Assembly: GCA_015065325.1 (NCBI GenBank)
Contig: SVQO01000008.1
Location: forward strand, 7,840 to 71,839
Direction: 5' to 3'
Source: Oscillospiraceae bacterium
Lineage (GTDB): Bacteria > Bacillota > Clostridia > Oscillospirales > SIG627
DNA: 64,000 nt
The notes beneath the pieces were generated by a model that was not told the origin of the DNA, did not search any database, and was given only the letters and a program-made list of their open reading frames with translations. Within the stretch, counting starts at the first letter, position 1, and every line of letters begins with the position of its first letter. Position numbers and translations under genes: made by a program. Below are positions 3,575-60,296 of this stretch, piece by piece.

Positions 3575-5065
3575 TTATCCTTGTGCCTTGCACTCTTTCA
3601 AAAGGCGGACCATTTCTACGGCGAAGTCGTCTCCGGTGGTTTCACAGAAGCGGCTGATGAATACCTCGTAAGCGCCGTGGGGGAAGGCGAGGGCGGAGGG
3701 CACGTAGCCGAAGCCGCCGTTGGAGTAGGAGCAGACGAAGGTCATTTTGAAGGGAGAGCCTTCGCGGACCTGAACGCCGTTGGTATCAAACATTTCGTAG
3801 GGAGCGGTGACAAAGCCGATATCGCCGAAGGAGATGGCGTAGAAGGGTACGTCCAGCGTTTCGCCGAGACTTGCGCGGCGAAGGATGCCTTCGATCTGGC
3901 GGGAGGAGGTAAAGCCGTTTTCTGCCAATGCCTTGGCGTAAGCCTCGGAGCCTTCCGCCTGCTTGTTGACGGTCTGCGCCTTTTCGATCGCCTCGGGGCT
4001 ATCCTGATAAACGGGCGCCTTGTACCAGTTGGAGGCGAAGCGCAGAGGACCGATTGCAACCTGCTCCTCCCCTGCAAGACAGCTTTCCGCGGTGGGGATC
4101 AAGCCTAGCTTGGTAGCATCGACAAAGGTGGAATATTTCCGTTCGCCGGGGATTGCGGAATTGAAGTTCAGATTTCCGGAGGCGCCGCTGTGATAAACGA
4201 AGTGGCAATCCCATTTCTTCTCGGCTTCTTCACGGAACACGTGAATAAAATCCGCGGAGTACTGGTTCTTATACATAGAGGTAGCGGAGCCGTAGTGAGT
4301 CTGATAGTTGACCATCAGAACGTCCTTTTTGTTTTTACGGTCGATGCGGATGGTACGCATCTGACAGTCTGCGTCGGATTCGTGTGCCACGGGGTTGCTG
4401 GATTGGGGGGCGTTGGTCTGGTAGGTTCCGTCTGCCAGCAGATAGCGGCGCACGAAGGTAATTCCCTCGGTATAGCCGGAGCCTACGTAAGCACCTTCGA
4501 CCGGATCCAGGTCGCGGAGTGCCGTGTTGATGGCGACAACCGCCTGGTTCAGCATCAGTACCTTCCATTTCAGAGCGGCGGTACTGTTAAAGGAGGAGTT
4601 GGGCGTGGAGTGAGAGTGGGTCACGTTCAGCACCACGCGGTCGGCGGGAACGTTGAATTCCTTTTGAATGCGGTCGGTAATGTCCTTGGAGAACTCCACG
4701 GTAATATTTTTAATATCCAGCGAGCAAAGCAAAGCCACGCTTCCCTCACCGTCGGAAATGGCGGTGCAGGTAAACATCAAGGGGTCGTGGGTGCTGTTGC
4801 CCGTTCCGTTGTAGATGGGCAGACCCGGCTCGGGGGTAATATCCGCTCTGCCGTAGCCTACGGAAAAGCCCTGGGGAAGCTCGTCGGGAATTTTGAAGTT
4901 TTCAACTTTCTGTGCAGGCTTTTTGCCGCTTTCCTGCTTAACGGAGGTTTTGGATTCTTCCTGCGCTGCGGTGGCTTGCGGTGCTGCCTGCTCCAAATCG
5001 GAAGCGCAGGAAGCAAAGGGGAGACAAAGCGCCAGCACGCAAAGAAGGGCGATCATTCTTTTCAT
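3575..5065 (-). CDS. Lipoprotein, neutral/alkaline non-lysosomal ceramidase-like hydrolase (paralog 0)
   Basis: The start was moved to MKRMIALLCVLALCLPFASC (lipobox, RBS AGGAGAA). Motifs are 'GFSVGYGRADITP', 'HDPLMFTCTAISDG', 'NVTHSHSTP', 'FVRRY', 'VNYQTHYGS', 'SGASGNLNFN', 'FGDIGFVTAPYEMFDTNG' and 'GAYEVF'. The C-terminus is ..CKAQG. Confidence 0.65.
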   Translation of the reverse strand: MKRMIALLCVLALCLPFASCASDLEQAAPQATAAQEESKTSVKQESGKKPAQKVENFKIPDELPQGFSVGYGRADITPEPGLPIYNGTGNSTHDPLMFTCTAISDGEGSVALLCSLDIKNITVEFSKDITDRIQKEFNVPADRVVLNVTHSHSTPNSSFNSTAALKWKVLMLNQAVVAINTALRDLDPVEGAYVGSGYTEGITFVRRYLLADGTYQTNAPQSSNPVAHESDADCQMRTIRIDRKNKKDVLMVNYQTHYGSATSMYKNQYSADFIHVFREEAEKKWDCHFVYHSGASGNLNFNSAIPGERKYSTFVDATKLGLIPTAESCLAGEEQVAIGPLRFASNWYKAPVYQDSPEAIEKAQTVNKQAEGSEAYAKALAENGFTSSRQIEGILRRASLGETLDVPFYAISFGDIGFVTAPYEMFDTNGVQVREGSPFKMTFVCSYSNGGFGYVPSALAFPHGAYEVFISRFCETTGDDFAVEMVRLLKECKAQG

Positions 5066-13573: not shown

Positions 13574-13603
13574 AACGGTACTGAAAACGAAAGGAAAACT
13601 GCT

Positions 13604-45310: not shown

Positions 45311-45373
45311 AGAAAAAAGGTGGACAAACCTTGAACATTTTGTTACAATGAGGAAAAAAGAAAGGTGATCTTT

Positions 45374-46515: not shown

Positions 46516-47457
46516 ATGTTTTGCACAAAGTGCGGAAAAGAGAAGGGGACGGAGGCTTTTTGCCCCTATTGCGGAGCAAAGGGAGGGAAGATCGTGCTTT
46601 CCGTAAAAGATCCCGAGCGATTTCCGATTTTTGCAATTATCTTTGCATTTTTGGCGTTTTTTGTTTTGGTAATGGATACGATCTCGGCTTCTACCTTGAT
46701 GTTTTGGTCGGGCGCGATTCAAACAACGATGGAAATCGTAGAATTTTATTCTAATTATATTTTCCTATTTCCTTTTCTCGTGATTGCAATGGACTTGTTC
46801 TCCAAGAGCCGAAGCTGGGTTTTTTCGGGAATCGTATGCTTCTATATCGATTTTTGCCGCACTCTTCTTATGCAGATCAGTATGAACCCGGAGTGGGCTC
46901 TGCTTTTCTTTTTCATATTGCTTTGCTGGACCTTTCTTTTGATATGGTGTGGGATTTTTACCTTTTCAGCTTCAAAAAAAAGGGGCTTTGTCACAGCGGC
47001 ACCTTACATTGCTGCCGGAGTTCAGCTCATTTCTGCACCTCTTTGCGCATGGTTCAATCTGAGGATTCATGAAAGTTTGGATGTATTAGGCTTTGGCGGC
47101 ATTATTCCGGAATTTTTCGGCAGTACTGCGTGGATGATCTTGACCGTGGTGATCTGGGGCGGATTTGCCTTCTTTATTACCAAGTTCTTTGCAGATTTTT
47201 ATTCGGTGGAGACTGCAATTGTAGCCCCCTCTGTACCTGCTCCCAAGATAGAGCTTGACCCCGAGGAGGAGACTTTCCAAGAGGAACAAACCGAAAAAAC
47301 GGAGCAAAACGGTTTTGCTTTCGTTCCGAACGAAGAAAAGAGAGAAAGGAGCGAGAAAGAGATTGTGGAGACTCTGCTTGAATACAAGGCTCTTTTGGAC
47401 AGCGGCATCATTACACAAGAGGAATTTGACCGAAAAAAGGCTCAGCTTTTGAAATAA
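46516..47457 (+). CDS. Paralogous zinc-ribbon / multi-TM / SHOCT membrane protein
   Basis: 'MFCTKCGKEKGTEAFCPYCG' ... 'EIVETLLEYKALLDSGIITQEEFDRKKAQLLK'. Confidence 0.65.
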   Translation: MFCTKCGKEKGTEAFCPYCGAKGGKIVLSVKDPERFPIFAIIFAFLAFFVLVMDTISASTLMFWSGAIQTTMEIVEFYSNYIFLFPFLVIAMDLFSKSRSWVFSGIVCFYIDFCRTLLMQISMNPEWALLFFFILLCWTFLLIWCGIFTFSASKKRGFVTAAPYIAAGVQLISAPLCAWFNLRIHESLDVLGFGGIIPEFFGSTAWMILTVVIWGGFAFFITKFFADFYSVETAIVAPSVPAPKIELDPEEETFQEEQTEKTEQNGFAFVPNEEKRERSEKEIVETLLEYKALLDSGIITQEEFDRKKAQLLK

Positions 47458-47461
47458 GAAC

Positions 47462-47493
47462 AAAAGACTGCTGCAATTTGCAGCAGTCTTTTT
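47462..47493. terminator. Bidirectional intrinsic terminator
   Basis: AAAGACTGCTGCA-ATT-TGCAGCAGTCTTT flanked by an A-run and a T-run. Confidence 0.75.
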
Positions 47494-47553: not shown

Positions 47554-48417
47554 TTATTTATCCTCCAGAAAGAGGGTTTGACCGGGGGCAATGGCGTAAT
47601 CTGTGCCGTCGATGGCAAAATACAGGGTGTGAAGGGTGGGATTCATGATGCGTCTGCTGTCGGCACTGTAGATCAGGGATTCGTAAGCCTTTACGTATTC
47701 GTACAACTCAATATTCGTACAGTACCAGATATCCTCCTTGCCACCCAGGGCGACACAGATCTTGTCCAGAAGATCCCAGTTATCCTCGCGGTCGAATTCA
47801 AAGCTGTGTCCCCACAGATAAAAGAGACGGGGGAAGCGGTTTGCTTTGTAGCGGGAGTTTACATCCAGAGAGACGAATTCTTCGATCCAGTCCATCAGCT
47901 TCGGGTTGGTGTGATGGGCGGTGGGGATCCAGTTGTGCCAATCGCGGGGTAAGCGAAAGTCGTTGTTGTCTCCGCCCAGAGAACGGGAATAGACGATTCC
48001 GAGATCGGAAAGATAGTCCTTGATATCCTCGTAGGAGGAGGTGTTGGTCAGTTTGGTGATACCGCTGTCGGGATAAGCCATTCCGCGGATGATCCTGCCG
48101 TATTCCGCCTCCAGCTCCAGTCTGCAATCCAGTACCTCGCGAATGCCTTCGATGGGGCGCAGATGCCCCTCGGCGCGGTGTCCCCATCCGTGGACGGCAA
48201 CCTCGTGTCCGCGGGAGAAGATATATTCCTCGCAGGTCTCGGGGGAAAAGGATTTTTCGCCGCGGTAGGAAACGCCGTTTAAGTTAAAGGTGCACTTGAT
48301 ACCGTATTTGGTAATGACGTCGGAGAGGCGGAGGTCGGAGGGGTGACCGTCGTCGTAGCTGAAGGTGACTGCTTTTGGCTTTCCTTGGGGAAAGCGTAAA
48401 AACTGGTAGCGGATCAT
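47554..48417 (-). CDS. Polysaccharide deacetylase (CE4/NodB) family protein
   Basis: 'AVTFSYDDGHPSD' and 'HEVAVHGWGH'. Its ATG overlaps the PHP gene stop (ATGA at 48414-48417). Confidence 0.75.
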   Translation of the reverse strand: MIRYQFLRFPQGKPKAVTFSYDDGHPSDLRLSDVITKYGIKCTFNLNGVSYRGEKSFSPETCEEYIFSRGHEVAVHGWGHRAEGHLRPIEGIREVLDCRLELEAEYGRIIRGMAYPDSGITKLTNTSSYEDIKDYLSDLGIVYSRSLGGDNNDFRLPRDWHNWIPTAHHTNPKLMDWIEEFVSLDVNSRYKANRFPRLFYLWGHSFEFDREDNWDLLDKICVALGGKEDIWYCTNIELYEYVKAYESLIYSADSRRIMNPTLHTLYFAIDGTDYAIAPGQTLFLEDK

Positions 48418-49220
48418 AATGCCTCCTGTAAGGTGAATTTTTGTTCTTCGGTCAGTGCCAGTGCGTCGATGGCTTTTTCCCAGTGTTCTTTTTGGCGAAG
48501 GTAATCGGTGGGAGCGTGAATATCGGAGCCCAGATAAAAGCGGCATCCCTCGCGCTTTGCAATGCGGAACAGACGTAAAACTACGTCCTCCTCCTCGGGG
48601 AGGTAGTTCATATCGGAAGAATTCAGCTCGATTCCCATTCCTGCCTTTGCCGCCTTGGAAAAGAGGACAGAGAGAGCCGCTTCGGGCAGGGCGGATAAGG
48701 TATCCAGGTAACCCTCTCGGCTTTCCTTGTGAATGAGCGGGCAGGCGGGATGGGCGAGACCTACCTTGTAAAAGGGAAGCTTCAGGGACAGCAGACGGTC
48801 CAGACGGCGGATATAGGCATCCACCCGTTTTTCCACCGTGTCCTTTTCCTCTGCGGCAAGATTTGCCGACATATGAAAATGGGTGGTGGGAACGATAATA
48901 AAGTCAAAGCAATGGATTTTTTCCTCGGATAGACCGAGAGTGAGATCTCCGTTCAGCTCCGTTTCACAGCCAAAGAGAAAGGAAACTCCCTCTGCAGTGG
49001 GCAGAGGGAGGTCACCGCAAATATGGGGATAATTCTGCTCACTGTACCAGGCACTTGCACCCGGGACAGCTTCGTCCCAAAAGTGATTGGTCATACAGAG
49101 GGTAGTAAGCCCCGCTTGCCTTGCCCCGTCCAGAATCCGCTCGGGAGTCTGGTCGGGGTTTTTGGCACATTTTGACAGGAAGGAGTGAATATGAAGATCG
49201 TGATCGATCTGATACTTCAC
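48414..49220 (-). CDS. PHP-domain phosphoesterase (histidinol-phosphatase-like)
   Basis: 'DLHIHS', '..TNHFW' and 'VPTTHFHM'. The GTG start lies 7 nt after AAGGAG, which overlaps the TAA of the upstream giant gene. Confidence 0.65.
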   Translation of the reverse strand: MKYQIDHDLHIHSFLSKCAKNPDQTPERILDGARQAGLTTLCMTNHFWDEAVPGASAWYSEQNYPHICGDLPLPTAEGVSFLFGCETELNGDLTLGLSEEKIHCFDFIIVPTTHFHMSANLAAEEKDTVEKRVDAYIRRLDRLLSLKLPFYKVGLAHPACPLIHKESREGYLDTLSALPEAALSVLFSKAAKAGMGIELNSSDMNYLPEEEDVVLRLFRIAKREGCRFYLGSDIHAPTDYLRQKEHWEKAIDALALTEEQKFTLQEAL

Positions 49221-49231
49221 GTTTTTTCTCC

Positions 49232-52200
49232 TTAGTTTGATTCTTTCATTGCGCGCAGAGCAGCCGTAAGTGCTGCGGCAACGCCGTCGCCGGTTCCGTC
49301 TTCATAGCGGCAGGTGTAAACCTCGTATCCGCCGTAGTGCTCCTTTGCCGCCTCGTTTTCGATGGAGGAAAGGTTGGAGGGAACGTAGCTCTTGGTACCG
49401 TTGGTATAACCGCCGCTGAAGGTCATCTTGTACAGATCGGCTACACCGTCGCGCATCTGTTTGCCGTTGGTATCGAACTGCTCGTAGGGAACGAATCCCA
49501 TGGCAATATCACCGAAGGAGAATGCGAAGACGTCGATGATCAGGTGGGTGGTTCCGGCAGTCTTGTAGTTGTTACGGGTGATGATGCTGGACATATGGTA
49601 GGTAGACTGCAGGAAGGGAGCCTCGGTTGCGTGGTTGTTGAAAATGTAGTTTCTTTGCTGAGTGACGCTGGTCCAGGCACCGTTTTCCGCTGCGTATGCC
49701 TTGCAGGCTTCGTTGACTGCCAAAGCTTTTTCGCGGATATCGTCGGGATCTACCTTTACGGGTGCGTTGTACTCGATATGATTTACTTGGAATGCACCGG
49801 TTTTGACCTTTTCTTCAGCGGCAACAGCTTCTTTTACGGTTCCTACCAGGCTCTTGCCGACGCCTTCAAAGTACTGATTGGTGAAGTACTTTGCGGCGAT
49901 GTCTTCCGCCGTCTTAGGTGTGAAGTTTAGGTTACCGGAGGAACCGTTGCAGTAAACGAAGTGAACGTCCATGTCCTCCTGAACACCCTTGCGGAGCCAA
50001 TAAACGAAGTCTCCGGTGAACTGAGTCTTATAGAGGTTTGCACCGTGTGCGGCGTGTCCCTGCCAGTTCACGAAAACGATGTCCTTCTTATCTCCGCGCT
50101 CAAAGCGAATGGTACGAAGCTCCTTGTCTGCCTCGGATTCGTATCCGACGACGGGGGAAGAGGTATCAGTCTCGTAAACGTGGATACCGGTGTAGCTTCC
50201 GTCCTCACGCACGTAACGGCGGACGAAGTTGGTACCGGGGGCAGAGGTTGCTTTGCCCACGTACGTCTCTGCGGGAGCCAGGTCCAGAATTGCTTGCTTG
50301 GTAGAGGAGATCAAGCTGGGCTCGAAGATCTCGGCGTACCATCTGGGAACGTTTTCTTTTGTTCTGGAGGTGGCGTCGGGACTGGAATGGTTATGGGTCG
50401 CGTTGAAGAAGATCTTGTCGGGATCGACGCCGAAGGTTTCGGAGATCAACGCCTTGTAGGTCTTGGTAAAGGTATCGTCGCACTGACGAACGTCAACGGA
50501 ATAGTAAAGGGCAAGCTCACCGCCGTCCCACAGGGCAAGACAGGTGACGTAGCAGGGATCAATGTAGAATTGTCCTACCGCGTAGCTGTACATATGCATT
50601 TTGAAGCCGTAGGAGGAGATATCTGCCATGGCATATCCTGCGGAGAAGGTTTCGGGATACGTAAAGTCATCCGGAAGCTTTTGATCGGAATAGTACGCTA
50701 CGCTTGCCTGAACGTAGTACTGGAGGGTCGCACCCACGTCCTCGAAGCCTTCTACTGCGGAAAATTCTTCCGCCAGAGCGTCCAACTGATCGATGTGATC
50801 AATAACGAAGGTAGTGGAGTTGTTCAGGGTTGCCTGTTCGGTGACGTAGAATCGGACGTAATTGCCGATGGTAGAGGGGTACAGAGGGATATCCACAGTG
50901 ACCCGATAGTAACCTGCGGGGAAGATCAGGCTCTCATAGCCGTCGGAGACCCAAGTCTTGGTAATGGTTGAAGTAATGTCCTCGCAGCCGTACCAGAAAT
51001 GCAGGTTGTGTACTTTGGCACTGCTCTGGTTCATTTGCTTCATTCTCTGACCCTTCAGAGTGTAGCGAATGCGCATACCGTCATCCAAAATCAGCTGCTT
51101 GCTCTCCAGGATCAGGTGAGCAGTTTCAGTCAGAGTCATATAGCCTCTGCCGCGGTTTTCGGTAACGTTCATCCCCTCCTGCAGGGTTGCAAAATCGGTG
51201 GGAGTGACGGGGTTTTCATAGGGGAGCGCGGTGGATTTGCTGTTTTTATAGTTATCGGTTGCGATGGCGTAGTTGGAAAACGCTTTGAGTAGTGCACCGA
51301 GCTCCGGATTCTGTCCCGCCTTATCGTAGATCTTGATGCCGTTGGCGGCTACCTCCAGGAGCGTGAAGGACTGCTCGGGAAGATAGTTGCCGGAATAGGT
51401 GATCGCTTTGTTGTAGTTGACGGTATTGATGGGTTCGGAAACCAAGGTGTAGTAGCCGTCCGCCAGAGTCAAGTCTGCAAATTTGGCGGCGTTGACGATG
51501 GTCTCGGTTCCTGCTTTCGCGGTGAAGCTGAATGTGCTCTGAATGCTCTCGACCCACTCCTTATCAAAAGCAAAGCGGATGGAAACGTTGTCGGAGAAGA
51601 CGAAGGCGACGCCTGCCAGCGCAGAGGAAAGGCCCTTGACAACACCGTTTTTCACCTGGACGCGGCCAAAGACGGTATCCGTCTCGGTGATGACGATGGC
51701 GGTGCCTGCGGGGGAGGCAAAGTAGGTGTTTGCGGACCAAAGCTCGGTCTGATGAAGAGCTACGGTGCCTATGACCTCGCTTGCGGTAATTCTCGTTCTG
51801 GCGCCGATGTTAATGACTTCGCCCCTCGAATCCAGCTTGCCGATGTTTGCCGCACCGAAGATCTTGGGAGCGCCTGCGCCCTCCTCCACGGTAAAGCTTT
51901 CGGCGGTGAATTTCCCGTTGATGGTAAGCGCCTTGCTTCCGCGGGCAACGATATTTTTTGCGGTAAAGTCGGTGGTCAGTGTCAGATCAAATTTGTCGGA
52001 GGAGGCGCTGATGTCGTTGTATTCCGAACCTATGGAAATAGCAAGAGGCTCAAGACCCTTTTCGGTATCGATATTGAGAAGGGTTTCGCCGTTGTAGGAG
52101 CCCAGACGGCAGTTGGGGTCAACGGTGTTCAGGAAAGTACCGCCTGCAAGGGTCAGAACGGTGTTACCCACGTGCTCTTTTGCTTGGGATTCATCATTGG

Positions 52201-54130
52201 GGATAGAACCGCCTGCCACGTAGCCGGGGAAGGTACCGCCGCGGATCAAGGTGGTGACGTTGCCTTGGTGTTTTCCGTTGCGGCAGCCGCCTGCAAAGGA
52301 GTTGGTCTTGGAGGTATTGTAGTAATTGAAGGTGCCGCCGGAGATCTCGTTATAAATGTTGCCCTTGTGGGTGGAGCTTCCACCGCCGGAGCCGCCCCAA
52401 ACGCCCTTGAAGGAACCGCCCGAGATGTAGTTCTTTACGGCAAAATCCACAGAGGTATTGGTGATCTTACCTCCGCGGGTACCGCAGTACAGATAAAGGG
52501 TATCAAAGTTACCGCCGGAAACGTGGTTCTCGATCTGTCCTTTGATCTCCGGAGAGTAACCGCCCAGATAGACCTCCTGGAAGTAGGTGCCGCCCTGAAC
52601 GTAGTTGGTGACGTTACCCGTGACGACACCGTTGTTGCTGGCGCCGTAAACGTAGTGGTTGTAGGTGCCGCTCTTGATGGTGGAGGTAATATTACCGTTC
52701 ACGGTGCCGTGATAGGTGCCCATATACAGGTTCACGTTTTTACCCAGGGTCACGTTCTCCAGGGTGTTGATGAGGTTACCCTGGATGCGCGCGGTGTCTC
52801 CTGCGGTGGCGCCCATATAAACGTGCTGTGCGGAGTTCTGCTCGGGAATAACGACGTTTTTCCAGCTCGTAGTCAGGTTGCCGGTCAAGACGGGACATTC
52901 GTCGAGACCTCTGTAAAAGGGAGCCGTTACGTTTTCCAACGTGTTGGTCACGTTACCCGTAATGGGGGCGTTGCCAAAACCGGCGTAGATGAAGCGGCTG
53001 AATTCGCTGTCCTTGATGGTGAGGGATATGTCGCCGTTGATCCCGCTGCTTCCGGTGGAAAGACCGCCGTAGTAGCGGTCGGCTTTCACGTTTTCAAGGC
53101 GGACGCTCAGATCGCCGTTGATCGTAACGTTGCTGAAGCCGATCTGAATCATTTTACCGTTTTCGACGGTATTGTTCATCAGATCCACGTTCTTGATGGT
53201 AGCGCTTACGTCACCGTTGACGGTGACTTCACGGAAAAGGCGGGGGAAGTCGGTCAAGGTGCCGCCGTCTACCTGAACGGTGATGTTACCCGTCAGCGCA
53301 GTCTGAAGACCAAAGCCGCCTGCGTAAAGATGCTTGATGGTGCCGCTCTTGACGTGAAGAACGGAATCTGCCACGGGGTTTTTGCCGCTTCTCACCATGG
53401 TATTGGTGAGGATGGCTCCGTCGATCACCAGCTTGGGGCAGGTATCGTCCGCGGAAACGGTCTTGCTTCCAACCTTGGCAGAGAAGTCCGTGGAGGAGCC
53501 GACAGCAGCGTAGGGATAGGCAGAGGGGTTCTCATAAATGAAGCCGTTGCCCAGGGTCATAGAGGAGGTGAACAGACCGTTTTCGGTGTAAAGGGCAAGG
53601 TTGTCCTCAGTCCATCCCTCAAAGGCTTTCGCGGTGAAGTTGTCACCGTAAAAGCGGGACTTGTATTCCCCTGCGGTGCCGTTGACGTCCATGGTGATAT
53701 TTCCCAGGGTTACGTTACCGGTTCCTGCATACAACTTGGTCTGCACGTCGTCAAAGGGAATGGTGATTCCCGTGAAGGTGTAGTCGTTGGTACAAACCAC
53801 GCTTGCCGCGGGGAGGTTCAGCGTGCCGCCGGTAATGGTAATGGGCAGCTTCTTCCCGCCGGGCAGAAAAATGGTTTTTTGACCGAACAGAATGCTGTTT
53901 TGGCTGGTTGCGGTATGGGTGCCCGATAAAACGATTCGGACGCCTTTTGCGTTCAGCTCACCGTTTGCTGCCATGGTTTCCACGGCGGCAAGAGCATTTT
54001 CAACGGAGGTATAGTCTCCGCCGGTTACTGCAACGGTGATCTCCAATGCATCGTCTGCCTGTACGGAGAGTGCAAGCCCCGCAAAAACAAGACAAACGGA
54101 AAGGAGAATGACCCAAAGTGTCTTTTTCAT
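49232..54130 (-). CDS. Secreted 1,632-aa protein: Sec signal + beta-helix-like repeat region + C-terminal ceramidase-like domain
   Basis: Signal ..ALSVQA|DD. Residues ~280-670 (nt ~52120-53295) carry at least 14 units of G-[ND]-[IVL]-x-[NST]-x-[IVL]..GG-x-F. The last ~474 aa (nt ~49235-50656) carry FSAGYAMADIS, FNATHNHSSP, NFVRRYV, VNWQGH, CNGSSGNLNF, FGDIAMGFVPYEQFDTNG and GGYEVY. Confidence 0.7.
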   Translation of the reverse strand: MKKTLWVILLSVCLVFAGLALSVQADDALEITVAVTGGDYTSVENALAAVETMAANGELNAKGVRIVLSGTHTATSQNSILFGQKTIFLPGGKKLPITITGGTLNLPAASVVCTNDYTFTGITIPFDDVQTKLYAGTGNVTLGNITMDVNGTAGEYKSRFYGDNFTAKAFEGWTEDNLALYTENGLFTSSMTLGNGFIYENPSAYPYAAVGSSTDFSAKVGSKTVSADDTCPKLVIDGAILTNTMVRSGKNPVADSVLHVKSGTIKHLYAGGFGLQTALTGNITVQVDGGTLTDFPRLFREVTVNGDVSATIKNVDLMNNTVENGKMIQIGFSNVTINGDLSVRLENVKADRYYGGLSTGSSGINGDISLTIKDSEFSRFIYAGFGNAPITGNVTNTLENVTAPFYRGLDECPVLTGNLTTSWKNVVIPEQNSAQHVYMGATAGDTARIQGNLINTLENVTLGKNVNLYMGTYHGTVNGNITSTIKSGTYNHYVYGASNNGVVTGNVTNYVQGGTYFQEVYLGGYSPEIKGQIENHVSGGNFDTLYLYCGTRGGKITNTSVDFAVKNYISGGSFKGVWGGSGGGSSTHKGNIYNEISGGTFNYYNTSKTNSFAGGCRNGKHQGNVTTLIRGGTFPGYVAGGSIPNDESQAKEHVGNTVLTLAGGTFLNTVDPNCRLGSYNGETLLNIDTEKGLEPLAISIGSEYNDISASSDKFDLTLTTDFTAKNIVARGSKALTINGKFTAESFTVEEGAGAPKIFGAANIGKLDSRGEVINIGARTRITASEVIGTVALHQTELWSANTYFASPAGTAIVITETDTVFGRVQVKNGVVKGLSSALAGVAFVFSDNVSIRFAFDKEWVESIQSTFSFTAKAGTETIVNAAKFADLTLADGYYTLVSEPINTVNYNKAITYSGNYLPEQSFTLLEVAANGIKIYDKAGQNPELGALLKAFSNYAIATDNYKNSKSTALPYENPVTPTDFATLQEGMNVTENRGRGYMTLTETAHLILESKQLILDDGMRIRYTLKGQRMKQMNQSSAKVHNLHFWYGCEDITSTITKTWVSDGYESLIFPAGYYRVTVDIPLYPSTIGNYVRFYVTEQATLNNSTTFVIDHIDQLDALAEEFSAVEGFEDVGATLQYYVQASVAYYSDQKLPDDFTYPETFSAGYAMADISSYGFKMHMYSYAVGQFYIDPCYVTCLALWDGGELALYYSVDVRQCDDTFTKTYKALISETFGVDPDKIFFNATHNHSSPDATSRTKENVPRWYAEIFEPSLISSTKQAILDLAPAETYVGKATSAPGTNFVRRYVREDGSYTGIHVYETDTSSPVVGYESEADKELRTIRFERGDKKDIVFVNWQGHAAHGANLYKTQFTGDFVYWLRKGVQEDMDVHFVYCNGSSGNLNFTPKTAEDIAAKYFTNQYFEGVGKSLVGTVKEAVAAEEKVKTGAFQVNHIEYNAPVKVDPDDIREKALAVNEACKAYAAENGAWTSVTQQRNYIFNNHATEAPFLQSTYHMSSIITRNNYKTAGTTHLIIDVFAFSFGDIAMGFVPYEQFDTNGKQMRDGVADLYKMTFSGGYTNGTKSYVPSNLSSIENEAAKEHYGGYEVYTCRYEDGTGDGVAAALTAALRAMKESN

Positions 54131-54149
54131 GATCGAAGATCCTTTCTGC

Positions 54150-54215
54150 TTGGTTTTTGTATCTTTGATACAATCCTACATCTTATAGTATATCACAAAA
54201 TTTTATCGCTTGCAA
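54150..54215 (-). promoter_or_regulatory. Sigma-A-like promoter of the downstream giant gene
   Basis: The minus strand reads TTGCAA-N17-TATACT (..CATTGCAAGCGATAAAATTTTGTGATATACT..), upstream of RBS AAAGGA. Confidence 0.45.
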
Positions 54216-54292
54216 TGGTGAAAAAAGAACCTTGTTTTTTTCACTTTTTTGCACAAAATATGAATTGTTTTTTTGGTAAAAAAAGATAAAAA

Positions 54293-54324
54293 AACGAAGC
54301 AATGAAACGTTTCATTGCTTCGTT
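54293..54324 (-). terminator. Intrinsic terminator after the upstream giant gene
   Basis: A perfect 16+16 nt palindrome, AACGAAGCAATGAAAC/GTTTCATTGCTTCGTT, followed by a T-run on the minus strand. Confidence 0.8.
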
Positions 54325-54339
54325 TAAAAACATAGGTTC

Positions 54340-57300
54340 TCAGTTGTTTTTCATTGCTCTTAAAGCTTCTACCAGAGCAAAGGCAATATCGTCGCCGGTG
54401 GAATCCACGTAGCGGGATGAGTAAACCTCGTAGCCGCCGTGGGGGGCTGCATATGCGGAGGGAATGTAGCTGTGAGAGCCGTTGGAATAGGCGGCGGTAA
54501 AGGTTATCTCGTAAAGATCCTCCACGCCGTCACGGATCTGCATGGCGTTGGTATCGAACTGCTCGAAGGGAACGAAAGACATTGCTGCGTCGCCGAAGGA
54601 GAAAGCGTACAGACCGATGGTGTTTGTCTCACCCATGCCGGAACGGGTGATGATATGAGAGATCTCGTATTTGGATTGGAATCCCGTCTGGGTCTGGATT
54701 TGCTTTGCGGGCATATCGGTACCGTGCTCTGCTTTGTACGCTTTCAAAAGCTCGTTTGCCTCCTTTGCTCTTGTTACGGTATCCTCATCCTCGTGCTTGA
54801 CAGAAGCAAGGAAGGGAATGTAGGTGACCTTGAAGGCGTCCGTTTCGATCTGCTTTTCGGTGGCAACCGCCTTTTTCACCGTTCCCACAAGGCTCGTACC
54901 GATCTGGGAGAAGTAGGGGCTGGTAAAGTATTTTGCATCGATATCCGCCTGCACCTTGGGAGTAAAGTTGATATTGCCCGAGGCACCGTTGCAATAGATA
55001 AAGTGCACGCCCATATCCTCTTCCACTCCGCTGCGGAGCCAATTCACCAGATCTGCGGTGAACTGATATCTGTATGCCGCACCGTGGGCAACGTGTCCCT
55101 GCCAGTTGACGTATACGATGTCCGTCTTGCCCTCGCGTTCAAAGCGCATGGTGCGAAGCTCCTTGTCCGCCTCGGTTTCGTAGGCGACCACATTGGAGGC
55201 GGGGATAATATTGTGAATGCCCGTGACGGTGCCGTCCGCATTCACGTAGCGGCGCACGTAGTTGGTGCCGGGGTCGGAAAGTGCCGAGCCGGTATAAAGC
55301 CGGCTGGGAGCAAGGTCCAAAATAGCCTTTTTGGTCGCCATCATAAGGGCGTCGTCAAAAATGGTTTCGTACCAGACCTTTACGGTTGCGCTGTTCATGC
55401 TGGAGGCGTTGGGACCGGAATGGTCGTGGGTGGCGTTGAAAAAGATCTTGTCGGGGTCGATCAGTCCGCGAAGCTCGTTTTTCAGAACGTTTTTGTATTT
55501 TTTGGCGAAATCTGCACTGACACCGCGGAAGTCCAGGGAATAGATCAACGCCAGCTCGTCTCCGTCCCAAAGGGCAAGACAGGTCACGTACATCGGGTCC
55601 AGGACCACCTTGCCGTTTCTGCCGCTGTACATATCCATATCGTAGCCGTAAGGAGAGAAATCTTCTCTGCCGAAGCCCGCGGAAAACTCGGTGGGATAGG
55701 TGAAATCGGAAATATCGGGCTGGGTTTCGTAGTAGGCGGCACCGGCCTGCAGGTAATAAAGCAGGGCTGCACCGAGCTCTTCGGAGCCTGCGGTACCCGC
55801 AAGCTCCTCGGCAATGGAATCCAAACGATCAATGTAATCCTCAGATACGTAGGTGGTGTAGGGCTCAGTGGAATCTGCCGGAAGCGCGGTATGCAGATCG
55901 TCTTTTTCCGCTACGATAAAGCGGATGCGATCATCGCTCTTGGAGGGGGTAACGGGCAGATCCACCGTGATTTCAAAATATCCTTTTCGGGAACTGCTTG
56001 CCACCCAGGTTTTTTTGACGGAGTTCGTTACGTCGACACAGTTGTAAAAGTAATGAAGGCTGTTGACAGGAGACGAGTTTTTCATGGTGGTATTCATTTC
56101 ATCCGATTTCAGATAGTAACGGATGCGCATCCCGTCGTCCAGAACGAGCTGCTTATTTTGCAGCTGTACCAAAGGTGTATTCACGATGGGGACAAAACCC
56201 TTTTGACCCACAAAGCCTGTTTCCGCGGTCGCGTTTTCATAGGGCAGGGGGGTGTTTTTCCCGTTTTTGTAATTATCGGTGGCGACCGCGTAGTTGGAGA
56301 ATGCTTTCAGAAGCTCGCCCAACTCCTTGTTCTGAGAGTCTTTTCCGTAAAGATGAATGCCGGTCTCGGCAAGTTGGAGCAGAGTGAAGCTCCTGCTTTC
56401 CATCATGTTTCCGCTGACGATGACCGTGGCGCACAGCTCAGTGGCGGAAAGATAGTCGGATTGGACCGTGTAGTATCCGTTTTTGAGAACCAGGTCGTCA
56501 AAACGGACGTTTTCTGCCAAAGAACGATCTCCGCAAACAGCGTTGAACAGGAAAAGGTCCTTTTCATTTTCAACCGACGCTTTGTCGAAGAAGAAACGCA
56601 GAGAGATCTTATCGTCGAAGACGAAGGAAACGCCTGCAAAGGCGGAACTTGTGCCCTTGACCACACCGTTTACGGCGGTGGCTTCACCGCTGGCGCTTTC
56701 TGCCATAGAAAGGGTAATATCGGTTCCTGCGGGGGAGGTGAAGTAGGTTCTCGGCAGCCAGTACTCCGATTGGTACAGGTTTACGGTGCCGTCCGTTTGC
56801 TCTACGGTAAGTGTGCCTTTTGCCCCCAGAGTCAGCTTCTTGCCGCCGGAAAGGAGACTTTTTGCCTTGACGGTTCCGTAAATCTCGGGTACGGCGGCGT
56901 TTGTCTCTACGGTGAACACGTCGCAGATCACGGTGCCGAACACTTGCAAAGCACCCGTTCCGCGCGCGATCAGCTCTTTGCAGGTCACGGTCATCGTCTG
57001 CACGGAGGGGGCGGAGGAATGGGCGGCAATAAAGGACTCGCATTCCAAATCGTATCCGAAGGAAAGGGGCTCCAGCGCCTTTTCCGTATTGACGTAGAGG
57101 TGGCTTTCCTCAAAGGCACCCCAACGGCTGTCGGCGCCGATGATATAGCGAAATTCGCCGCCTGCAAGGGTGAGCGTGGAGACGCCTTTGTGGGTATGGC
57201 CCCAATCCGCCTGGTTAGGGATGGCTCCGCCGTACACGTAGCCCTCGAAGACACCGCCGCGGATCAGAGTATCCACGTTTGCGTTATGGGTACCGTTTCG

Positions 57301-59193
57301 CACGGAGCCCGCAAAGGAATTGATCTTATCTTGGTAGTTATAGACACCGAAATGACCGCCGGAGATCTCGTTGTAAACGTTTGCGGTCAGAACACTGTCT
57401 CTTCCGTTTCCGCCGCCGCCCCAAACGCCCTTGAAGGAACCGCCGGTAAAGTAGTTTTCAATGGGGTAGGGGATGCTTGCATTGCTGACCTTGCCGTTGC
57501 GGGTGCCGCAGAAAAGATACAGTGTGTCGAAATTTCCGCCTGAAATGTGGTTTTCAATCTTACCGGTAACCGTAGGCATATAGCCGCCAAGGTATACTTC
57601 TTGCAGGTAGGTGCCGCCTTGCACGTAGTTGAGCAGAGTGCCCTTTACGGTGCCGGAATAGGGGCCGCCGTAAAGGTAGTGAGAGAAGGTGCCGCTTTTA
57701 ACGGTGTTGGTGATGTTGCCGTTTACGGTACCGCCTTGATTGGCACAGTACAGAGAAAGCTTGCCTTGGACGGTTACGTTTTCCAAGGTATTGGTGATAT
57801 CTCCGGCTACCTCACAACTGACGCTTGCACCGAGATGTATCGTGTCCTCTTTGGCCGGCTCGGCAAAGGTAACGTTCTTTAAATGGTTGGTCAGGTTTCC
57901 GACGGAGGATTTGCTACCGGTATATTCTTCCTTGTTCCCCAACGTGGGGCACTCGTCCAGCCCGCGAAAGCGGGGGCCGATATTTACGTTTTCCAAGGTG
58001 TTTTCCACGTTTCCGTAAACGGCGGACTGTCCGAAGCCGCCGTAGAAAAAGCGGGTGAAGTCACAGTTTTTGACGGTTGTGCTTACGTCTCCCGTAACCT
58101 TGTAACCCTTTCCTCCCATAGCTCCGTAATAGCGGTCGGCTTTTACGTTTTCCATATAAACGGTGACGTTTCCTTTGACGGTGACGCCCGCAAAGCCGAT
58201 CTCGATCATCTGCCCGTCGTCCGTGGGATTGTTTTGTGTCAGATCCATGTTTTTCAGAAAAACGGACAGATTTCCGTTCAAGGTCGTCTTGTTCAGGATG
58301 CGGACGAAGTGACGGATGGAACCTCCCTCCACGAGGACGGTGATACTACCGGTGTGGGTGACGCCGTTGGTGCTGGAGGGAGTTGCGTACAGGTGATTGA
58401 CGGCACCGCTTTTGATCTGCAGAACGGAGTTTCCGACGGGGTTGAAGCCTACTCTCGACATGGTATTTGCCAGCGTTGCACCGTCAACGATCAGCTCGGT
58501 GCGGGTGTCGTCTGCGGAAAGGGTTTTGCTTCCGATCACTGCGGTAAAGTCCGTGGAGGATCCTACCGAGGCGAAGGCATAGGTGGAGGCGCTTTCATAG
58601 TTGAAGCCCTCTCCCAGGGTCATGGAGGAATAGAAGAGACCGTTTTTCATATAACCGTTCAGATTTTGCTCGGTCCAACCTTCAAAGACCTTTCCCGTAA
58701 AGGTGTCTGCGTAGAAGTAGCTTTTATACTGGGCAGTACCGTTCAGGTCAAGGGTGATATTCTTTAAAGTAACGTTACCGCTTCCCGCGTATAGCTTGGT
58801 GGCGATGTCGTCAAAGGGGATGGAAATATCCGTAAAGGTGTAGTCGTTGGTGCAGGCAACGTTGCCCGTTGGCAGGGTCAGGGTTCCGCCGCTGATGGTG
58901 ATGGGGAGCTTTTTGCCCGTGTACAGAAAGATGGTCTTCTGACCGAACAGGATTCCGTCTTTTGCCGTTGCGGTATGAGAGCCTGACAGGATCAGGTGAA
59001 CGCCTTTTGCGTTCAGCTCGCCCTTTTTCGCCATGGTCTCCACGGCGGCAAGAGCGCTTTCTACGGTGGTATAGTCCCCTCCGCTTGCCGCTACGGTAAG
59101 CTCCAGGGCAGTATCTGCCTGCACGGACAGTGCCAGGGCGGCAAAGGTCAGGCAGAAGGTGAAGAACAAAGCGATCATCGTTTTCTTCATCAT
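54340..59193 (-). CDS. Secreted ~1,617-aa paralog: Sec signal + beta-helix-like repeats + C-terminal ceramidase-like domain
   Basis: Start at MMKKTMIAL after AGGAAC. Signal ..ALSVQA|D. It has the same repeat grammar (GNVTVYMENVKA, GNITNTVKSGTF, GKIENHISGGNF, NVYNEISGGHF). The C-domain (nt ~54343-55697) carries FSAGFGREDFS, FNATHDHSGP, NYVRRYV, VNWQGH, CNGASGNINF, FGDAAMSFVPFEQFDTN and GGYEVY. Confidence 0.7.
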   Translation of the reverse strand: MMKKTMIALFFTFCLTFAALALSVQADTALELTVAASGGDYTTVESALAAVETMAKKGELNAKGVHLILSGSHTATAKDGILFGQKTIFLYTGKKLPITISGGTLTLPTGNVACTNDYTFTDISIPFDDIATKLYAGSGNVTLKNITLDLNGTAQYKSYFYADTFTGKVFEGWTEQNLNGYMKNGLFYSSMTLGEGFNYESASTYAFASVGSSTDFTAVIGSKTLSADDTRTELIVDGATLANTMSRVGFNPVGNSVLQIKSGAVNHLYATPSSTNGVTHTGSITVLVEGGSIRHFVRILNKTTLNGNLSVFLKNMDLTQNNPTDDGQMIEIGFAGVTVKGNVTVYMENVKADRYYGAMGGKGYKVTGDVSTTVKNCDFTRFFYGGFGQSAVYGNVENTLENVNIGPRFRGLDECPTLGNKEEYTGSKSSVGNLTNHLKNVTFAEPAKEDTIHLGASVSCEVAGDITNTLENVTVQGKLSLYCANQGGTVNGNITNTVKSGTFSHYLYGGPYSGTVKGTLLNYVQGGTYLQEVYLGGYMPTVTGKIENHISGGNFDTLYLFCGTRNGKVSNASIPYPIENYFTGGSFKGVWGGGGNGRDSVLTANVYNEISGGHFGVYNYQDKINSFAGSVRNGTHNANVDTLIRGGVFEGYVYGGAIPNQADWGHTHKGVSTLTLAGGEFRYIIGADSRWGAFEESHLYVNTEKALEPLSFGYDLECESFIAAHSSAPSVQTMTVTCKELIARGTGALQVFGTVICDVFTVETNAAVPEIYGTVKAKSLLSGGKKLTLGAKGTLTVEQTDGTVNLYQSEYWLPRTYFTSPAGTDITLSMAESASGEATAVNGVVKGTSSAFAGVSFVFDDKISLRFFFDKASVENEKDLFLFNAVCGDRSLAENVRFDDLVLKNGYYTVQSDYLSATELCATVIVSGNMMESRSFTLLQLAETGIHLYGKDSQNKELGELLKAFSNYAVATDNYKNGKNTPLPYENATAETGFVGQKGFVPIVNTPLVQLQNKQLVLDDGMRIRYYLKSDEMNTTMKNSSPVNSLHYFYNCVDVTNSVKKTWVASSSRKGYFEITVDLPVTPSKSDDRIRFIVAEKDDLHTALPADSTEPYTTYVSEDYIDRLDSIAEELAGTAGSEELGAALLYYLQAGAAYYETQPDISDFTYPTEFSAGFGREDFSPYGYDMDMYSGRNGKVVLDPMYVTCLALWDGDELALIYSLDFRGVSADFAKKYKNVLKNELRGLIDPDKIFFNATHDHSGPNASSMNSATVKVWYETIFDDALMMATKKAILDLAPSRLYTGSALSDPGTNYVRRYVNADGTVTGIHNIIPASNVVAYETEADKELRTMRFEREGKTDIVYVNWQGHVAHGAAYRYQFTADLVNWLRSGVEEDMGVHFIYCNGASGNINFTPKVQADIDAKYFTSPYFSQIGTSLVGTVKKAVATEKQIETDAFKVTYIPFLASVKHEDEDTVTRAKEANELLKAYKAEHGTDMPAKQIQTQTGFQSKYEISHIITRSGMGETNTIGLYAFSFGDAAMSFVPFEQFDTNAMQIRDGVEDLYEITFTAAYSNGSHSYIPSAYAAPHGGYEVYSSRYVDSTGDDIAFALVEALRAMKNN

Positions 59194-59257
59194 AGAGTTC
59201 CTTTCGATTCCGATCATTTATGAAAATTAAGGCGAAACAGATAAAAATACATAATAA

Positions 59258-59285
59258 ATTATATCATAGGTGAAGACCGTTGCAA
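59258..59285 (-). promoter_or_regulatory. Sigma-A-like promoter of the upstream giant gene
   Basis: The minus strand reads TTGCAA-N16-TATAAT. Confidence 0.5.
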
Positions 59286-59372
59286 ATACCTTGAATTGAA
59301 CAAAAATGAGCACGTTGTTTTGTGCAAAAAGCAAAAGAAAAAATGCGGCGAGAATTTTCTCGTCGCAAAGTT

Positions 59373-60260
59373 TTATCGTTTCCACCGCAGAGTGTTGCCT
59401 ACCTCCTCCAAAGGAAGCAGGATCACCCGTTCCTCGGTGCCGTCCTCGGCGGGCTTGTTGGGGGAGTGGATTGCCAGGGTCATCTCTCCTTCAAGAGAGG
59501 TGAAGATCATTCCGTGTCCTCCGTCGTAATCCCCCGAAAACAGGCGGGAATAAAGCAGATCACCGTGCTTCCAGGGACCCGTTACCAGACCGCTTTCGCT
59601 CTCGGAAATGCCTACGCAGTAGCCGTTGTCGGAATAATTGGACCAGATCATCAAAAGCTTTCCGCCTTCGGTTTTGTGCATAAAGCAGCCGTCCGTGACC
59701 TTTCTGCCCTTTGCCCATTCGGGCTCGGGTGCGGAAAACAGCTCCGTGATCTCTCCCTCCAGTCGGGTCAGATCCTCGGAGAGGCGGCAAGCCATCATCC
59801 TGCCCATTCCGTCCTCGGTGCACTTCCACTCCTTTACGAAGACAAGCCAGGGCTTGCCGCTTTCATCAACGTAGAGGGTTCCGTCCAGACATTCCCACTC
59901 GGCAGGAGTCAGGTGCCCGTCGGAGATCTCGCGAAAGGGTCCCTCGGGAGAATCTGCGGCAAGGACCGTGCAGCCCTTTCGTCCCGTCTTGGAGGAAAAA
60001 TAGGTGGTGAGCATATACCATTTTCCTCGGTAAAGCCAGACCTCGGGTGCCCAGAAGTTCTTCTCGGCGTATTTCGGAAGCTCGGCAACGTTTTCCACCT
60101 TTTCCCAATCCCCTGCAAGATCTCCGCAGGTATTTTTGTAAAGGGTCCAGCGGGTATTTGCCCAGTCGGTTCCGACAACGCCCGTTCCGTAGGCGTAATA
60201 GATCCCCTCGTGGACGACGATGAAGGGGTCGCGTAATTTATTTATTTTGGTGACGATCAT
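59373..60260 (-). CDS. Glycoside hydrolase family 43 protein
   Basis: 'LRDPFIVVHEGIYYAYGT', 'FWAPEVWLYRGKWYM' and a five-bladed-propeller-like repeat pattern. A terminator hairpin lies at about 59345-59368. Confidence 0.7.
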   Translation of the reverse strand: MIVTKINKLRDPFIVVHEGIYYAYGTGVVGTDWANTRWTLYKNTCGDLAGDWEKVENVAELPKYAEKNFWAPEVWLYRGKWYMLTTYFSSKTGRKGCTVLAADSPEGPFREISDGHLTPAEWECLDGTLYVDESGKPWLVFVKEWKCTEDGMGRMMACRLSEDLTRLEGEITELFSAPEPEWAKGRKVTDGCFMHKTEGGKLLMIWSNYSDNGYCVGISESESGLVTGPWKHGDLLYSRLFSGDYDGGHGMIFTSLEGEMTLAIHSPNKPAEDGTEERVILLPLEEVGNTLRWKR

Positions 60261-60296
60261 TGTTTCTCCTTTTTTCGATCCTGTTTTGTGGTAGGA

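Follow-up and report, generated by a model that had tools for sequence, protein, structure and literature searches.

The DNA analysed here, a window of 64,000 nucleotides from an uncultured animal-gut Clostridia bacterium, carries two adjacent giant genes on the minus strand whose products, predicted to be secreted, have about 1,600 residues each. Gene A (49232..54130) encodes 1632 amino acids, 100% identical to P0001. Gene B (54340..59193) lies within an open reading frame spanning 54340-59217, with 59193 as its probable start, and encodes a 1617-residue protein that is identical to P0008 and present on 23 contigs. An earlier note, made from the letters of this DNA, had described them as tandem paralogs with Sec signals, and this holds: both open reading frames were found, their products share 52% identity over the full length, and both have hydrophobic, signal-like N-termini that end in ALSVQA followed by D. 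The predicted signal peptide of A comprises residues 1-25 (54056..54130), with cleavage predicted after SVQA, low pLDDT in the AlphaFold2 (AF2) model and a helix at residues 3-19; that of B would lie at 59116-59193. The remainder of A divides into a beta-solenoid-like scaffold (residues 26-700, 52031..54055; AF2 model and repeat HMM), which contains a repeat core (residues 281-655, 52166-53290), a beta-sandwich and helical unit (residues 701-1150, 50681..52030; structure model and scaffold-family comparison) and a Zn-amidase domain of the neutral-ceramidase superfamily (residues 1151-1632, 49235..50680; profile, fold and active-site residues). In B, the beta scaffold occupies 55720-59115 and the ceramidase-like Zn-amidase domain 54343-55719.

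Two smaller genes follow A on the same strand, one for a PHP-family phosphoesterase (48414..49220, 268 aa) and one for a CE4/NodB-type deacetylase (47554..48417, 287 aa). As had been noted, the stop codon of A lies inside the PHP ribosome-binding site (TAAGGAG, then a 7-nt spacer and a GTG start, 11 nt past the stop), and the PHP and CE4 genes overlap by ATGA. The predicted PF01522 match on CE4 was obtained (39.6 bits against a cutoff of 23.1), while PF02811 on PHP stayed under its cutoff (21.8 against 26.4 bits). Promoter-like sites with a TG-extended -10 are present on the minus strand upstream of B (59258..59286, TTGCAA-16-TATAAT) and of the A-PHP-CE4 unit (54187..54215, TTGCAA-17-TATACT), with the sequences previously given; since shuffled sequence yields as many sites as the promoter scan overall, they are to be read as consensus matches only. 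An intrinsic-terminator-like hairpin between B and A (54292..54325, minus strand; 15 bp stem, then a T run) would close the B transcript, and another with a 14 bp stem lies 3' of CE4 (47462..47492, minus strand). The proposed transcription units are thereby flanked by promoter-like sites and terminators; B would be transcribed on its own, and A together with the two enzyme genes.

The order A-type giant, PHP and, where the sequence continues, CE4 recurs in all six genomes with downstream DNA, and across these conserved loci the PHP and CE4 orthologs are 78-93% identical. One genome has a giant without PHP or CE4. The proposed coupling of the three genes thus stands as conserved gene order, but is loosened by the PHP family being large, widespread and mostly found without giants. 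Inspection of the PHP and CE4 sequences found no signal peptide, and their catalytic motifs begin as early as residues 10 and 23, respectively, so that both enzymes appear to be cytoplasmic. Such enzymes cannot share an extracellular substrate with a secreted one, and the suggestion that they act jointly with the amidase is not sustained.

The last ~480 residues of A and B had been assigned to the neutral ceramidases, with a direct Pfam match expected. That match was not obtained: PF04734 gave nothing at E<=0.1 on either giant, and neither protein had a direct Pfam or NCBIfam match. The relation itself is borne out by profile and fold. A profile of 57 family members searched against the PDB retrieved human neutral ceramidase (4wgk, E=3.3e-17) and 2zws (E=1.7e-8), and an AF2 model of the domain (pLDDT 91.2, pTM 0.92) had neutral ceramidases as its sole strong Foldseek matches in the PDB (2zws, 2zxc and 4wgk, with E-values from about 2e-23 up to 9e-23, TMq 0.64-0.66 and 13-14% identity). 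Many ~480-aa homologs of the domain also bear precomputed PF04734. The columns aligned to human H194, H196, R257, H303, E540, Y579 and Y591 are invariant in the 57 family members, and all seven Zn-binding or catalytic positions, including the histidine and other metal ligands, are kept in both giants (H1246, H1248, R1304, H1359, E1550, Y1582 and Y1602 in A). Active-site roles have been described for H196, R257, Y579 and Y591 of the human enzyme (PMC6952831). By analogy with it, zinc would be held by H1246, H1359, E1550 and Y1582, with H1248, R1304 and Y1602 assisting hydrolysis of an N-acyl amide bond.

Compared with human ASAH2 (PDB 4WGK) and Pseudomonas aeruginosa CerN (PDB 2ZWS/2ZXC), which are covered by PF04734 and PF17048, the giants have in common the fold, the THxHS, R, H, E and two Y active-site positions and an extracytoplasmic location (predicted for the giants). 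In contrast, their sequences have diverged below Pfam reporting, their amidase domain is fused behind a scaffold of ~1,120 residues, the amidase motif GDVSPN is replaced by G[AS][SA]GN[LI]N in 57/57 family members, and the C-terminal Ig-like domain is not present in the family. Because these last two hallmarks are missing, the domain is a divergent member of the superfamily rather than a proven ceramidase, and its substrate, even its reaction type, could differ from ceramide hydrolysis.

Four stand-alone proteins in the window align with the last ~480 residues of A and B at 33-36% identity, as the earlier note had claimed. One (3575..5065, minus strand) lies outside the operon and matches PF04734 below threshold (E=7e-4); the others form a tandem triplet on the plus strand (10393-11910, 12014-13498 and 13604-15070). 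All four are single-domain proteins with lipobox-like N-termini, suggestive of lipoproteins. They are examples of uncharacterised ~480-aa lipoproteins of Clostridia, some annotated as 'neutral/alkaline non-lysosomal ceramidase N-terminal domain-containing protein', which are lipid-anchored, are encoded in tandem by at least three adjacent genes and belong to the same subfamily as the C-terminal domain of the giants (33-43% identity, same invariant residues), whereas the giants have a predicted type-I signal peptide and a scaffold. A gene for a patatin-like phospholipase (15118-15969) and one for a GDPD-PHP fusion (18733-20376) lie near the triplet. At related loci a CN_hydrolase-GDPD gene adjoins a ceramidase-like gene (L010) or a PHP homolog (L031/L032), and a ZIP metal transporter flanks the lipoprotein arrays of L011 and L012.

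These neighbours, together with a complete active site and structural and profile relatives that are all ceramide-hydrolysing enzymes, would fit true sphingolipid ceramidases. The six paralogs of the window (two giants and four lipoproteins) would then deacylate dietary, host or Bacteroidota sphingolipids, allowing an anaerobic gut Firmicute to release fatty acids or sphingoid bases, and PHP would act on the phosphorylated head group or base following uptake. Taken as a whole, we find this possible but doubtful, given the two missing hallmarks, the low identity to neutral ceramidases and neighbourhood links that are sparse and loose; no sphingolipid kinase, lyase or glucosylceramidase gene was seen in the window. 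Of the earlier proposal of a secreted N-acyl amidase acting on ceramide, sphingolipid or an envelope polymer, the ceramidase relation and the active site thus persist, and the substrate part is conjecture.

The first ~1,150 residues are modelled with a pLDDT of 87 and are almost entirely beta, an ordered and repetitive structure. A signature block of the family (LFGQKTIF...ACxNDYTF) occurs in A at about residues 80-120, and an N-terminal strand-helix cap is predicted for the scaffold. The repeat is genuine, although the count is 13 clear units of 25-34 aa rather than the 'at least 14' put forward before: an HMM built from the A units detected 11 units in B (6-29 bits) and many in distant relatives, and nothing above 0 bits in 20 shuffles. 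Its proposed identity as a parallel beta-helix was not confirmed. The scaffold has coils of similar length, short strands and a predicted cap in common with right-handed parallel beta-helix proteins (pectin-lyase fold, autotransporter passengers, phage tailspikes), and Foldseek gave marginal matches to viral proteins of AidA-like, autotransporter, 'beta helix' and pectinesterase type (E 7.5e-4 to 0.06), which lend the idea weak support. However, TM-scores were <=0.17 and no Pfam model matched, including Beta_helix and Pectate_lyase. Nor did any PDB fold match at E<1e-3, so that the putative solenoid geometry depends on a single AF2 model together with the secondary structure and the spacing of the repeats. 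Presentation on a stalk was not upheld either, since the giants were found to lack a C-terminal TM segment as well as LPXTG, SLH and any further domain that binds the cell wall.

The scaffold family is small, with 229 cluster representatives at E<=1e-3. Most members stop at profile positions ~1120-1130, and the unit equivalent to A residues 701-1150 is the C-terminal end of the family in most relatives. The amidase is present in only 8 of the best 150 scaffold relatives, in three different arrangements; the fusion of a beta scaffold and a ceramidase-like amidase in one secreted protein is rare and without existing annotation, as the earlier note had supposed. Other relatives bear DUF4886, GDSL, CE2_N, Cadherin-like or Big_2 domains. 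P0164, the P0024 locus and others follow the modular plan of A and B, with a common N-terminal block, solenoid repeats, a C-terminal beta unit and an attached hydrolase, which in P0164 is a GDSL domain at the position of A's amidase. In the SGNH/GDSL, DUF4886 and CE2_N relatives the attached enzyme is of the SGNH-fold esterase type, or missing, and many have an additional N-terminal domain and a Cadherin-like domain. One relative has a sub-threshold DUF1565 match at the scaffold N-cap.

Adhesin-type domains among the relatives (Cadherin-like, Big_2, Sgo0707_N2), the large size and beta repeats of the giants, their occurrence in tandem arrays of 2-3 and a scaffold that evolves faster than the catalytic domain (63-66% against 76-89% identity among orthologs) could also indicate surface proteins that serve mainly as adhesins or weapons against the envelopes of neighbouring bacteria, for example N-acylated Bacteroidota lipids, with tandem paralogs as diversification and PHP/CE4 as functionally unrelated passengers. 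We regard this as quite improbable: PHP and CE4 are tightly linked and strongly conserved, no conserved immunity-like small gene adjoins the giants, and no anchor motif was found. Some scaffold relatives bear SGNH/GDSL, CE2_N and DUF4886 domains, and most characterised SGNH families include carbohydrate-active members (PMC9487903). In parallel with relatives bearing carbohydrate esterases, the C-terminal domain might de-N-acylate a polysaccharide or glycoconjugate, with the scaffold as a carbohydrate-binding, even catalytic, beta-helix; CE4 and PHP would finish degrading, in the cytoplasm, the amino-sugar or sugar-phosphate fragments taken up. Retention of CE4 in the operon, the DUF1565 match and abundant glycoside hydrolases nearby (GH43, GH77, GH2, GH95-like, rhamnosidase) would agree with this. 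We nevertheless judge it unlikely, since no CBM, PL or GH model matched the scaffold and the glycoside hydrolase neighbours lie in separate units (an AraC gene and GH2 form a divergent pair, and the glycogen genes are unrelated). To our knowledge, no member of the neutral ceramidase fold acts on glycans.

The reading that we consider probable makes A and B modular hydrolases exported through the Sec pathway, in which a scaffold delivers de-acylating enzymes and here carries a zinc amidohydrolase of the neutral-ceramidase superfamily. After export and signal peptide cleavage, the mature proteins would consist of a long, rigid, near-all-beta scaffold of about 1,120 residues, running from the conserved N-terminal block through about 13 solenoid coils to the beta-sandwich/helical unit and ending in the ~480-residue enzyme. 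Most scaffold relatives are without the amidase, and some carry SGNH/GDSL-type esterases or DUF4886, which argues that the scaffold is a delivery module, a carrier or targeting unit separate from the amidase; since the searches revealed neither an anchor nor a recognised binding domain, the targeting role is assigned purely by inference. PHP and CE4 would at most process imported products, and the scaffold would bring its enzymes to an acylated lipid or glycoconjugate of the gut that is insoluble or bound to a surface.

The evidence gathered here makes it rather likely that the two giant genes encode modular zinc amidases of the neutral ceramidase (nCDase) superfamily that are exported on a scaffold serving as carrier or for targeting, and that the downstream one is expressed together with two hydrolases of the cytoplasm. 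The downstream gene, A, occupies 49232-54130 on the minus strand and encodes 1632 residues; the second giant ORF extends at its longest over 54340-59217 on the same strand, and the start chosen for it, 59193, which is preceded by GAAAGGA and agrees with database protein P0008, gives B, with 1617 residues. A and B are 52% identical over their full length, and both have a basic, hydrophobic N-terminus that ends in ALSVQA/D. A Cys conserved at position 13 raised the possibility that the giants are lipoproteins, which was rejected: the residues that precede it (LSV, FTF) are not those of a lipobox, and SVQA/D suits cleavage of type I well. That the minus strand is the coding one is backed by all the evidence from homology, structure and databases. 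Long antisense ORFs run within both genes (54439-57543 (+), 1034 aa; 51752-53929 (+), 725 aa) and probably arise from the repeat-rich codon composition.

With the last 482 residues of A as a tblastn query, six copies of the catalytic domain were found in the window: A itself, B (55%) and four stand-alone genes (33-36%). The earlier note had predicted a PF04734 match on this domain, and the prediction failed, as the Pfam scan gave no match of that model to A or B at E<=0.1, short of the gathering score, and neither Pfam nor NCBIfam matched the giants with any model at the same limit. A lipoprotein paralog (3575-5143) does match PF04734 below threshold (E=7e-4, 18.7 bits vs a cutoff of 32.1), and the family is precomputed on many homologs of about 480 aa. 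The kinship to neutral ceramidase that lay behind the prediction is borne out by the family profile and by the fold. A profile built from the six window copies matches the human enzyme (4WGK) with E=4e-7, and for a 57-sequence family profile the values are E=3.3e-17 with 4WGK and E=1.7e-8 with 2ZWS, the Pseudomonas enzyme. The AlphaFold (AF2) model of the C-terminal domain (pLDDT 91.2, pTM 0.92) places the nCDase structures 2ZWS, 4WGK and 2ZXC at ranks 1-4 of a Foldseek search of the PDB (E~2e-23, TMq 0.64-0.66); the next match has E=1.6e-4 and TM 0.13, and no other rises above TM 0.15.

The active site appears to be complete. In the HMM alignment to 4WGK, the human residues H194, H196, R257, H303, E540, Y579 and Y591 (numbered as the chain index plus 98, the construct beginning at residue 99) fall in columns that are invariant in 57/57 family sequences; their equivalents in A are H1246, H1248, R1304, H1359, E1550, Y1582 and Y1602, and B has the same motifs. 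In nCDase, H194, H303, E540 and Y579 are the zinc ligands and H196, R257 and Y591 the catalytic residues, so that the giants keep all of these positions; part of this assignment of roles is reportedly the work of Airola et al. in 2015. The other part is taken from a published account of the enzyme, which also describes an amidase motif, NLGDVSPNxLGPxC, to which Ser354 of the active site belongs (PMC6952831). Unlike bona fide nCDases, the giants lack both the GDVSPN motif and the C-terminal Ig-like domain. GDVSPN occurs in neither A nor B nor any of the 57 family members, where G[AS][SA]GN[LI]N is presumed to be its counterpart in an equivalent position; Pfam found no Ig-like domain (PF17048) in the giants or in the lipoprotein paralog, and in the giants the final catalytic Tyr is followed by some 30 residues. 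Taken together, alignment and model suggest a Zn-amidase that has diverged within the nCDase superfamily and is probably active. Membership in that superfamily does not make the giants demonstrated ceramidases of EC 3.5.1.23, which split ceramide into a sphingoid base and a fatty acid, and their proposed function derives from remote homology. The catalytic fold is not new, and the stand-alone proteins make up a common, uncharacterised subfamily; it is the fusion and the scaffold family that are undescribed and rare.

The four stand-alone paralogs lie at 10393-15070 (+), three in tandem, and at 3575-5065 (-), with likely starts at 5065(-), 10393, 12014 and 13604 and lipobox-like N-termini (...SLAAC, ...SLFSC, ...SLGSC, ...PFASC). 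Tandem arrays of such lipoprotein genes also occur in two of the other genomic loci fetched, L011 (6001-10666, three genes) and L012 (4334-13455, up to six tblastn matches), in both of which they adjoin a gene for a ZIP-family metal transporter, and these arrays suggest a lineage-specific expansion of a zinc enzyme family. In the window, the triplet is abutted by a patatin-like phospholipase gene with DUF6363 (15118-15969, -), and a GDPD-PHP fusion lies 3 kb beyond the latter (18733-20376, -). The PHP domain of this fusion was considered as a member of the same subfamily as the PHP protein encoded downstream of A and rejected, the two being only 24% identical over 131 aa. A CN_hydrolase-GDPD fusion adjoins a ceramidase-like gene in locus L010 (7371-8990) and a homolog of the downstream PHP gene in loci L031/L032 (7840-9465). 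The neighbourhood link among ceramidase-like, GDPD and PHP genes is thus loose but recurring. The lipid-type genes found near the lipoprotein paralogs (patatin, GDPD-PHP, CN_hydrolase-GDPD and ZIP), together with the fact that the sole known relatives of the C-terminal domain are nCDases, speak for a sphingolipid or another N-acyl lipid as the substrate of the giants, which we consider possible, if doubtful.

The first 1,150 or so residues of the giants form a scaffold, for which the earlier note had proposed a beta-helix. Modelled with 24 homologs, it gives an AlphaFold prediction with a pLDDT of 87.1 that is not disordered and consists almost entirely of short beta strands, with few helices (residues 43-55, 942-962 and 1116-1149). 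Within it, A has 13 repeat units of 25-34 aa (residues 281-655) with the pattern G-[ND]-[ILV]-x-x-x-[ILV]-x-[GN]-[GV]-x-[FL]...Y-x-G, and DSSP analysis of the AF2 scaffold model places short strands at the repeat period, mostly at pLDDT >90. An HMM of the unit derived from A finds 11 units in B, at 6-29 bits, and many in the distant relatives P0024, P0152 and P0159, with no score >0 bits in 20 shuffles. The repeat is real, its period fits a solenoid, and short-stranded coils in tandem are what a right-handed parallel beta-helix calls for, at about 22-35 residues per coil. What stands of the proposal is the tandem repeat and its ordered beta strands; these do not suffice to identify a classical beta-helix, since Foldseek of the whole 1150-aa scaffold against the PDB gave no match at E<1e-3 and only weak Ig-domain alignments, in a multi-domain query that may mask local matches. 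In BFVD, the same search retrieved proteins of AidA-like, autotransporter, 'beta helix' and pectinesterase type, though only marginally (E from 7.5e-4 to 0.06, at low TM), and one scaffold relative has a sub-threshold DUF1565 match at its N-cap. Pfam searches with three N-terminal sub-regions and the distant relatives P0023 and P0024 returned nothing useful, those with members of the C-terminal scaffold unit (A7) only chance-level matches; PDB sequence profiles found no relatives of the repeat region (A4) or of A7, and PHROGs no match for either scaffold. The best-conserved part of the scaffold lies outside the repeats, in the block LFGQKTIF...GKKLPITI..GG...ACxNDYTF (A residues ~80-120, ~53771-53893, -), which could be a binding or catalytic site; the relatives are 23-30% identical.

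An exhaustive HMMER search of 1.84 billion representatives recovered 229 scaffold proteins at E<=1e-3, mostly of 1,100-2,300 aa, most of which stop at the end of the scaffold. Among the best 150 relatives, no more than 8 have a ceramidase-like domain: it is C-terminal in P0013, P0146, P0150 and P0245, N-terminal in P0235, and preceded by nothing but the last scaffold unit in P0236 and P0248, proteins of about 800 aa. The reversed order in P0235 (1969 aa; ceramidase-like domain 11-602, scaffold 608-1481) points to independent fusion events. Two further loci, each from a different MAG, L020 (44-7450 and 10246-11406) and L024 (9-8152 and 9838-10461), have a scaffold gene without the amidase 2-3 kb upstream of a separate ceramidase-like gene, a neighbourhood link that adds to the fusions. 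Other relatives carry DUF4886, an SGNH-clan family of unknown function (PMC9487903), Lipase_GDSL/GDSL_2, CE2_N, Cadherin-like, Big_2 or Sgo0707_N2 domains, and in P0164 a GDSL domain takes the position of the amidase. This variety of enzyme domains argues for the scaffold as a carrier for different de-acylating heads; in the giants, such a head would be attached to a carrier or targeting scaffold and exported with it. The picture of a stalk, as first drawn, is not borne out, because no anchor was detected in the giants, neither LPXTG nor an SLH or other wall-binding Pfam domain. That the giants serve as adhesins or in antagonism, a reading for which the architecture is the sole basis, seems very improbable. 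The esterases on scaffold relatives, together with the CE4 gene and the GH-rich surroundings, favour a de-N-acylase of glycans, which we judge unlikely. The surroundings include a GH77 amylomaltase and a GH43 upstream of the giants (59373-61721, -), separate genes in the window that are called as one 783-aa fusion in locus L008 (7452-9803). Farther away, and unrelated to the giants, a glycyl-radical enzyme (PFL-like plus Gly_radical) lies beside a radical-SAM activase (26986-30731, -).

To return to the proposed carrier-borne amidases, their genetic context separates A from B. Promoter-like sites with TG before the -10 were found at the positions claimed for them, upstream of B (TTGCAA-16-TATAAT, 59285-59258, -) and of A (TTGCAA-17-TATACT, 54215-54187, -), and are consensus matches only, since a scan found sites in numbers no higher than in shuffles. 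Strong terminator-like hairpins lie between B and the promoter of A (54325-54292, 15-bp stem) and downstream of CE4 (47492-47462, 14-bp stem), so that B looks monocistronic and A-PHP-CE4 tricistronic. Both junctions reported previously were confirmed: the stop codon of A is inside TAAGGAG, 7 nt upstream of the GTG start of PHP, and PHP and CE4 share an ATGA overlap. A further terminator-like hairpin within the PHP coding sequence (49010-48986, -; 10-bp stem with 7 G-C pairs, T-rich tail, ~210 nt past the start) may be chance or an internal attenuator. PHP (48414-49220, -) scores 21.8 bits against PF02811, under the cutoff of 26.4; NCBIfam PHP-domain and HisJ-family models match it (E~1e-7), homologs at 52-59% identity carry PF02811, and the metal motifs HIH (residues 10-12) and DIH (233-235) are present, all of which assigns it to the PHP phosphoesterase superfamily. 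CE4 (47554-48417, -) is likewise assigned to carbohydrate esterase family 4/NodB, with 39.6 bits against PF01522 (cutoff 23.1), YDDG and HGWGH motifs and weak PDB similarity to SpPgdA.

Across all fetched loci, tblastn and gene tables show the giants in tandem arrays of 2-3 with the A-type ortholog (scaffold 63-66% identical, C-terminal domain 76-89%) always last. PHP (78-83%) directly follows it in 6/6 genomes with downstream sequence, and CE4 (86-93%) comes next in the 5/5 loci that continue (L001, the window as L004/L005, L007, L009 and L014), the sequence of the sixth, L013, stopping inside PHP. The B-type singleton (L002/L015) is without either; in L002 (7186-9509, -) it is preceded on the opposite strand by genes for NAGPA (a phosphodiester glycosidase), an unknown protein and a PAP2 phosphatase, another phosphoester theme. 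The PHP family has 2,344 matches at E<=1e-5, which elsewhere occur without giants or CE4. An AraC gene (44516-45310), divergently paired with GH2 in the window and in L007/L009, was considered as the operon's regulator and, because of that pairing, set aside as unproven. It is separated from CE4 by two zinc-ribbon/SHOCT-domain genes (45365-46492 and 46516-47457, both +), which are missing there in L007 and L009; in these loci AraC comes straight after CE4. Neither PHP (HIH at 10-12) nor CE4 (DD at 23-24) has a signal peptide, and both are cytoplasmic, which conflicts with the extracellular coupling of three enzymes proposed in the earlier note; if they are coupled to the secreted enzyme, it must be through product uptake. 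A would thus be made together with cytoplasmic PHP and CE4 and linked to them only through imported products.

Full-length giants form about 22 clusters in 5.8 billion, all unnamed or 'hypothetical', in keeping with a rare and unannotated architecture. The genome matches are all uncultured Eubacteriales/Clostridia MAGs, one from sheep colon; a metagenome scan with the C-terminal domain of A gave no match, one with the scaffold profile only 5 further loci, and no literature was found on the A/B family. Our search of the literature likewise found no characterised neutral-ceramidase-superfamily enzyme from an anaerobic gut Firmicute, and we know of none. A more speculative view, which we hold to be improbable, is that the scaffold defines an undescribed class of modular secreted 'de-acylase carriers' (a new beta-solenoid module for targeting, on which heads that are SGNH esterases or ceramidase-fold amidases can be exchanged) in uncultured animal-gut Clostridia, and that, with at least 6 ceramidase-like genes in 64 kb, the locus would be the first gut-Firmicute system for harvesting sphingolipids or N-acyl lipids. 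It would act on sphingolipids from Bacteroidota, the diet or the host, and their head-group products would be imported and then processed by PHP and CE4. The locus offers testable candidates, with a compact, confidently modelled catalytic domain, a complete active site and six paralogs, which are either lipoproteins or giant secreted fusions. With them comes a scaffold predicted to be a new, confidently folded family, some members of which bear esterases. Should the substrate prove to be a sphingolipid or a new N-acyl compound, the known chemistry and ecology of the ceramidase fold would be extended; if it is otherwise, the giants would still bring to light a new domain family, in a modular architecture.
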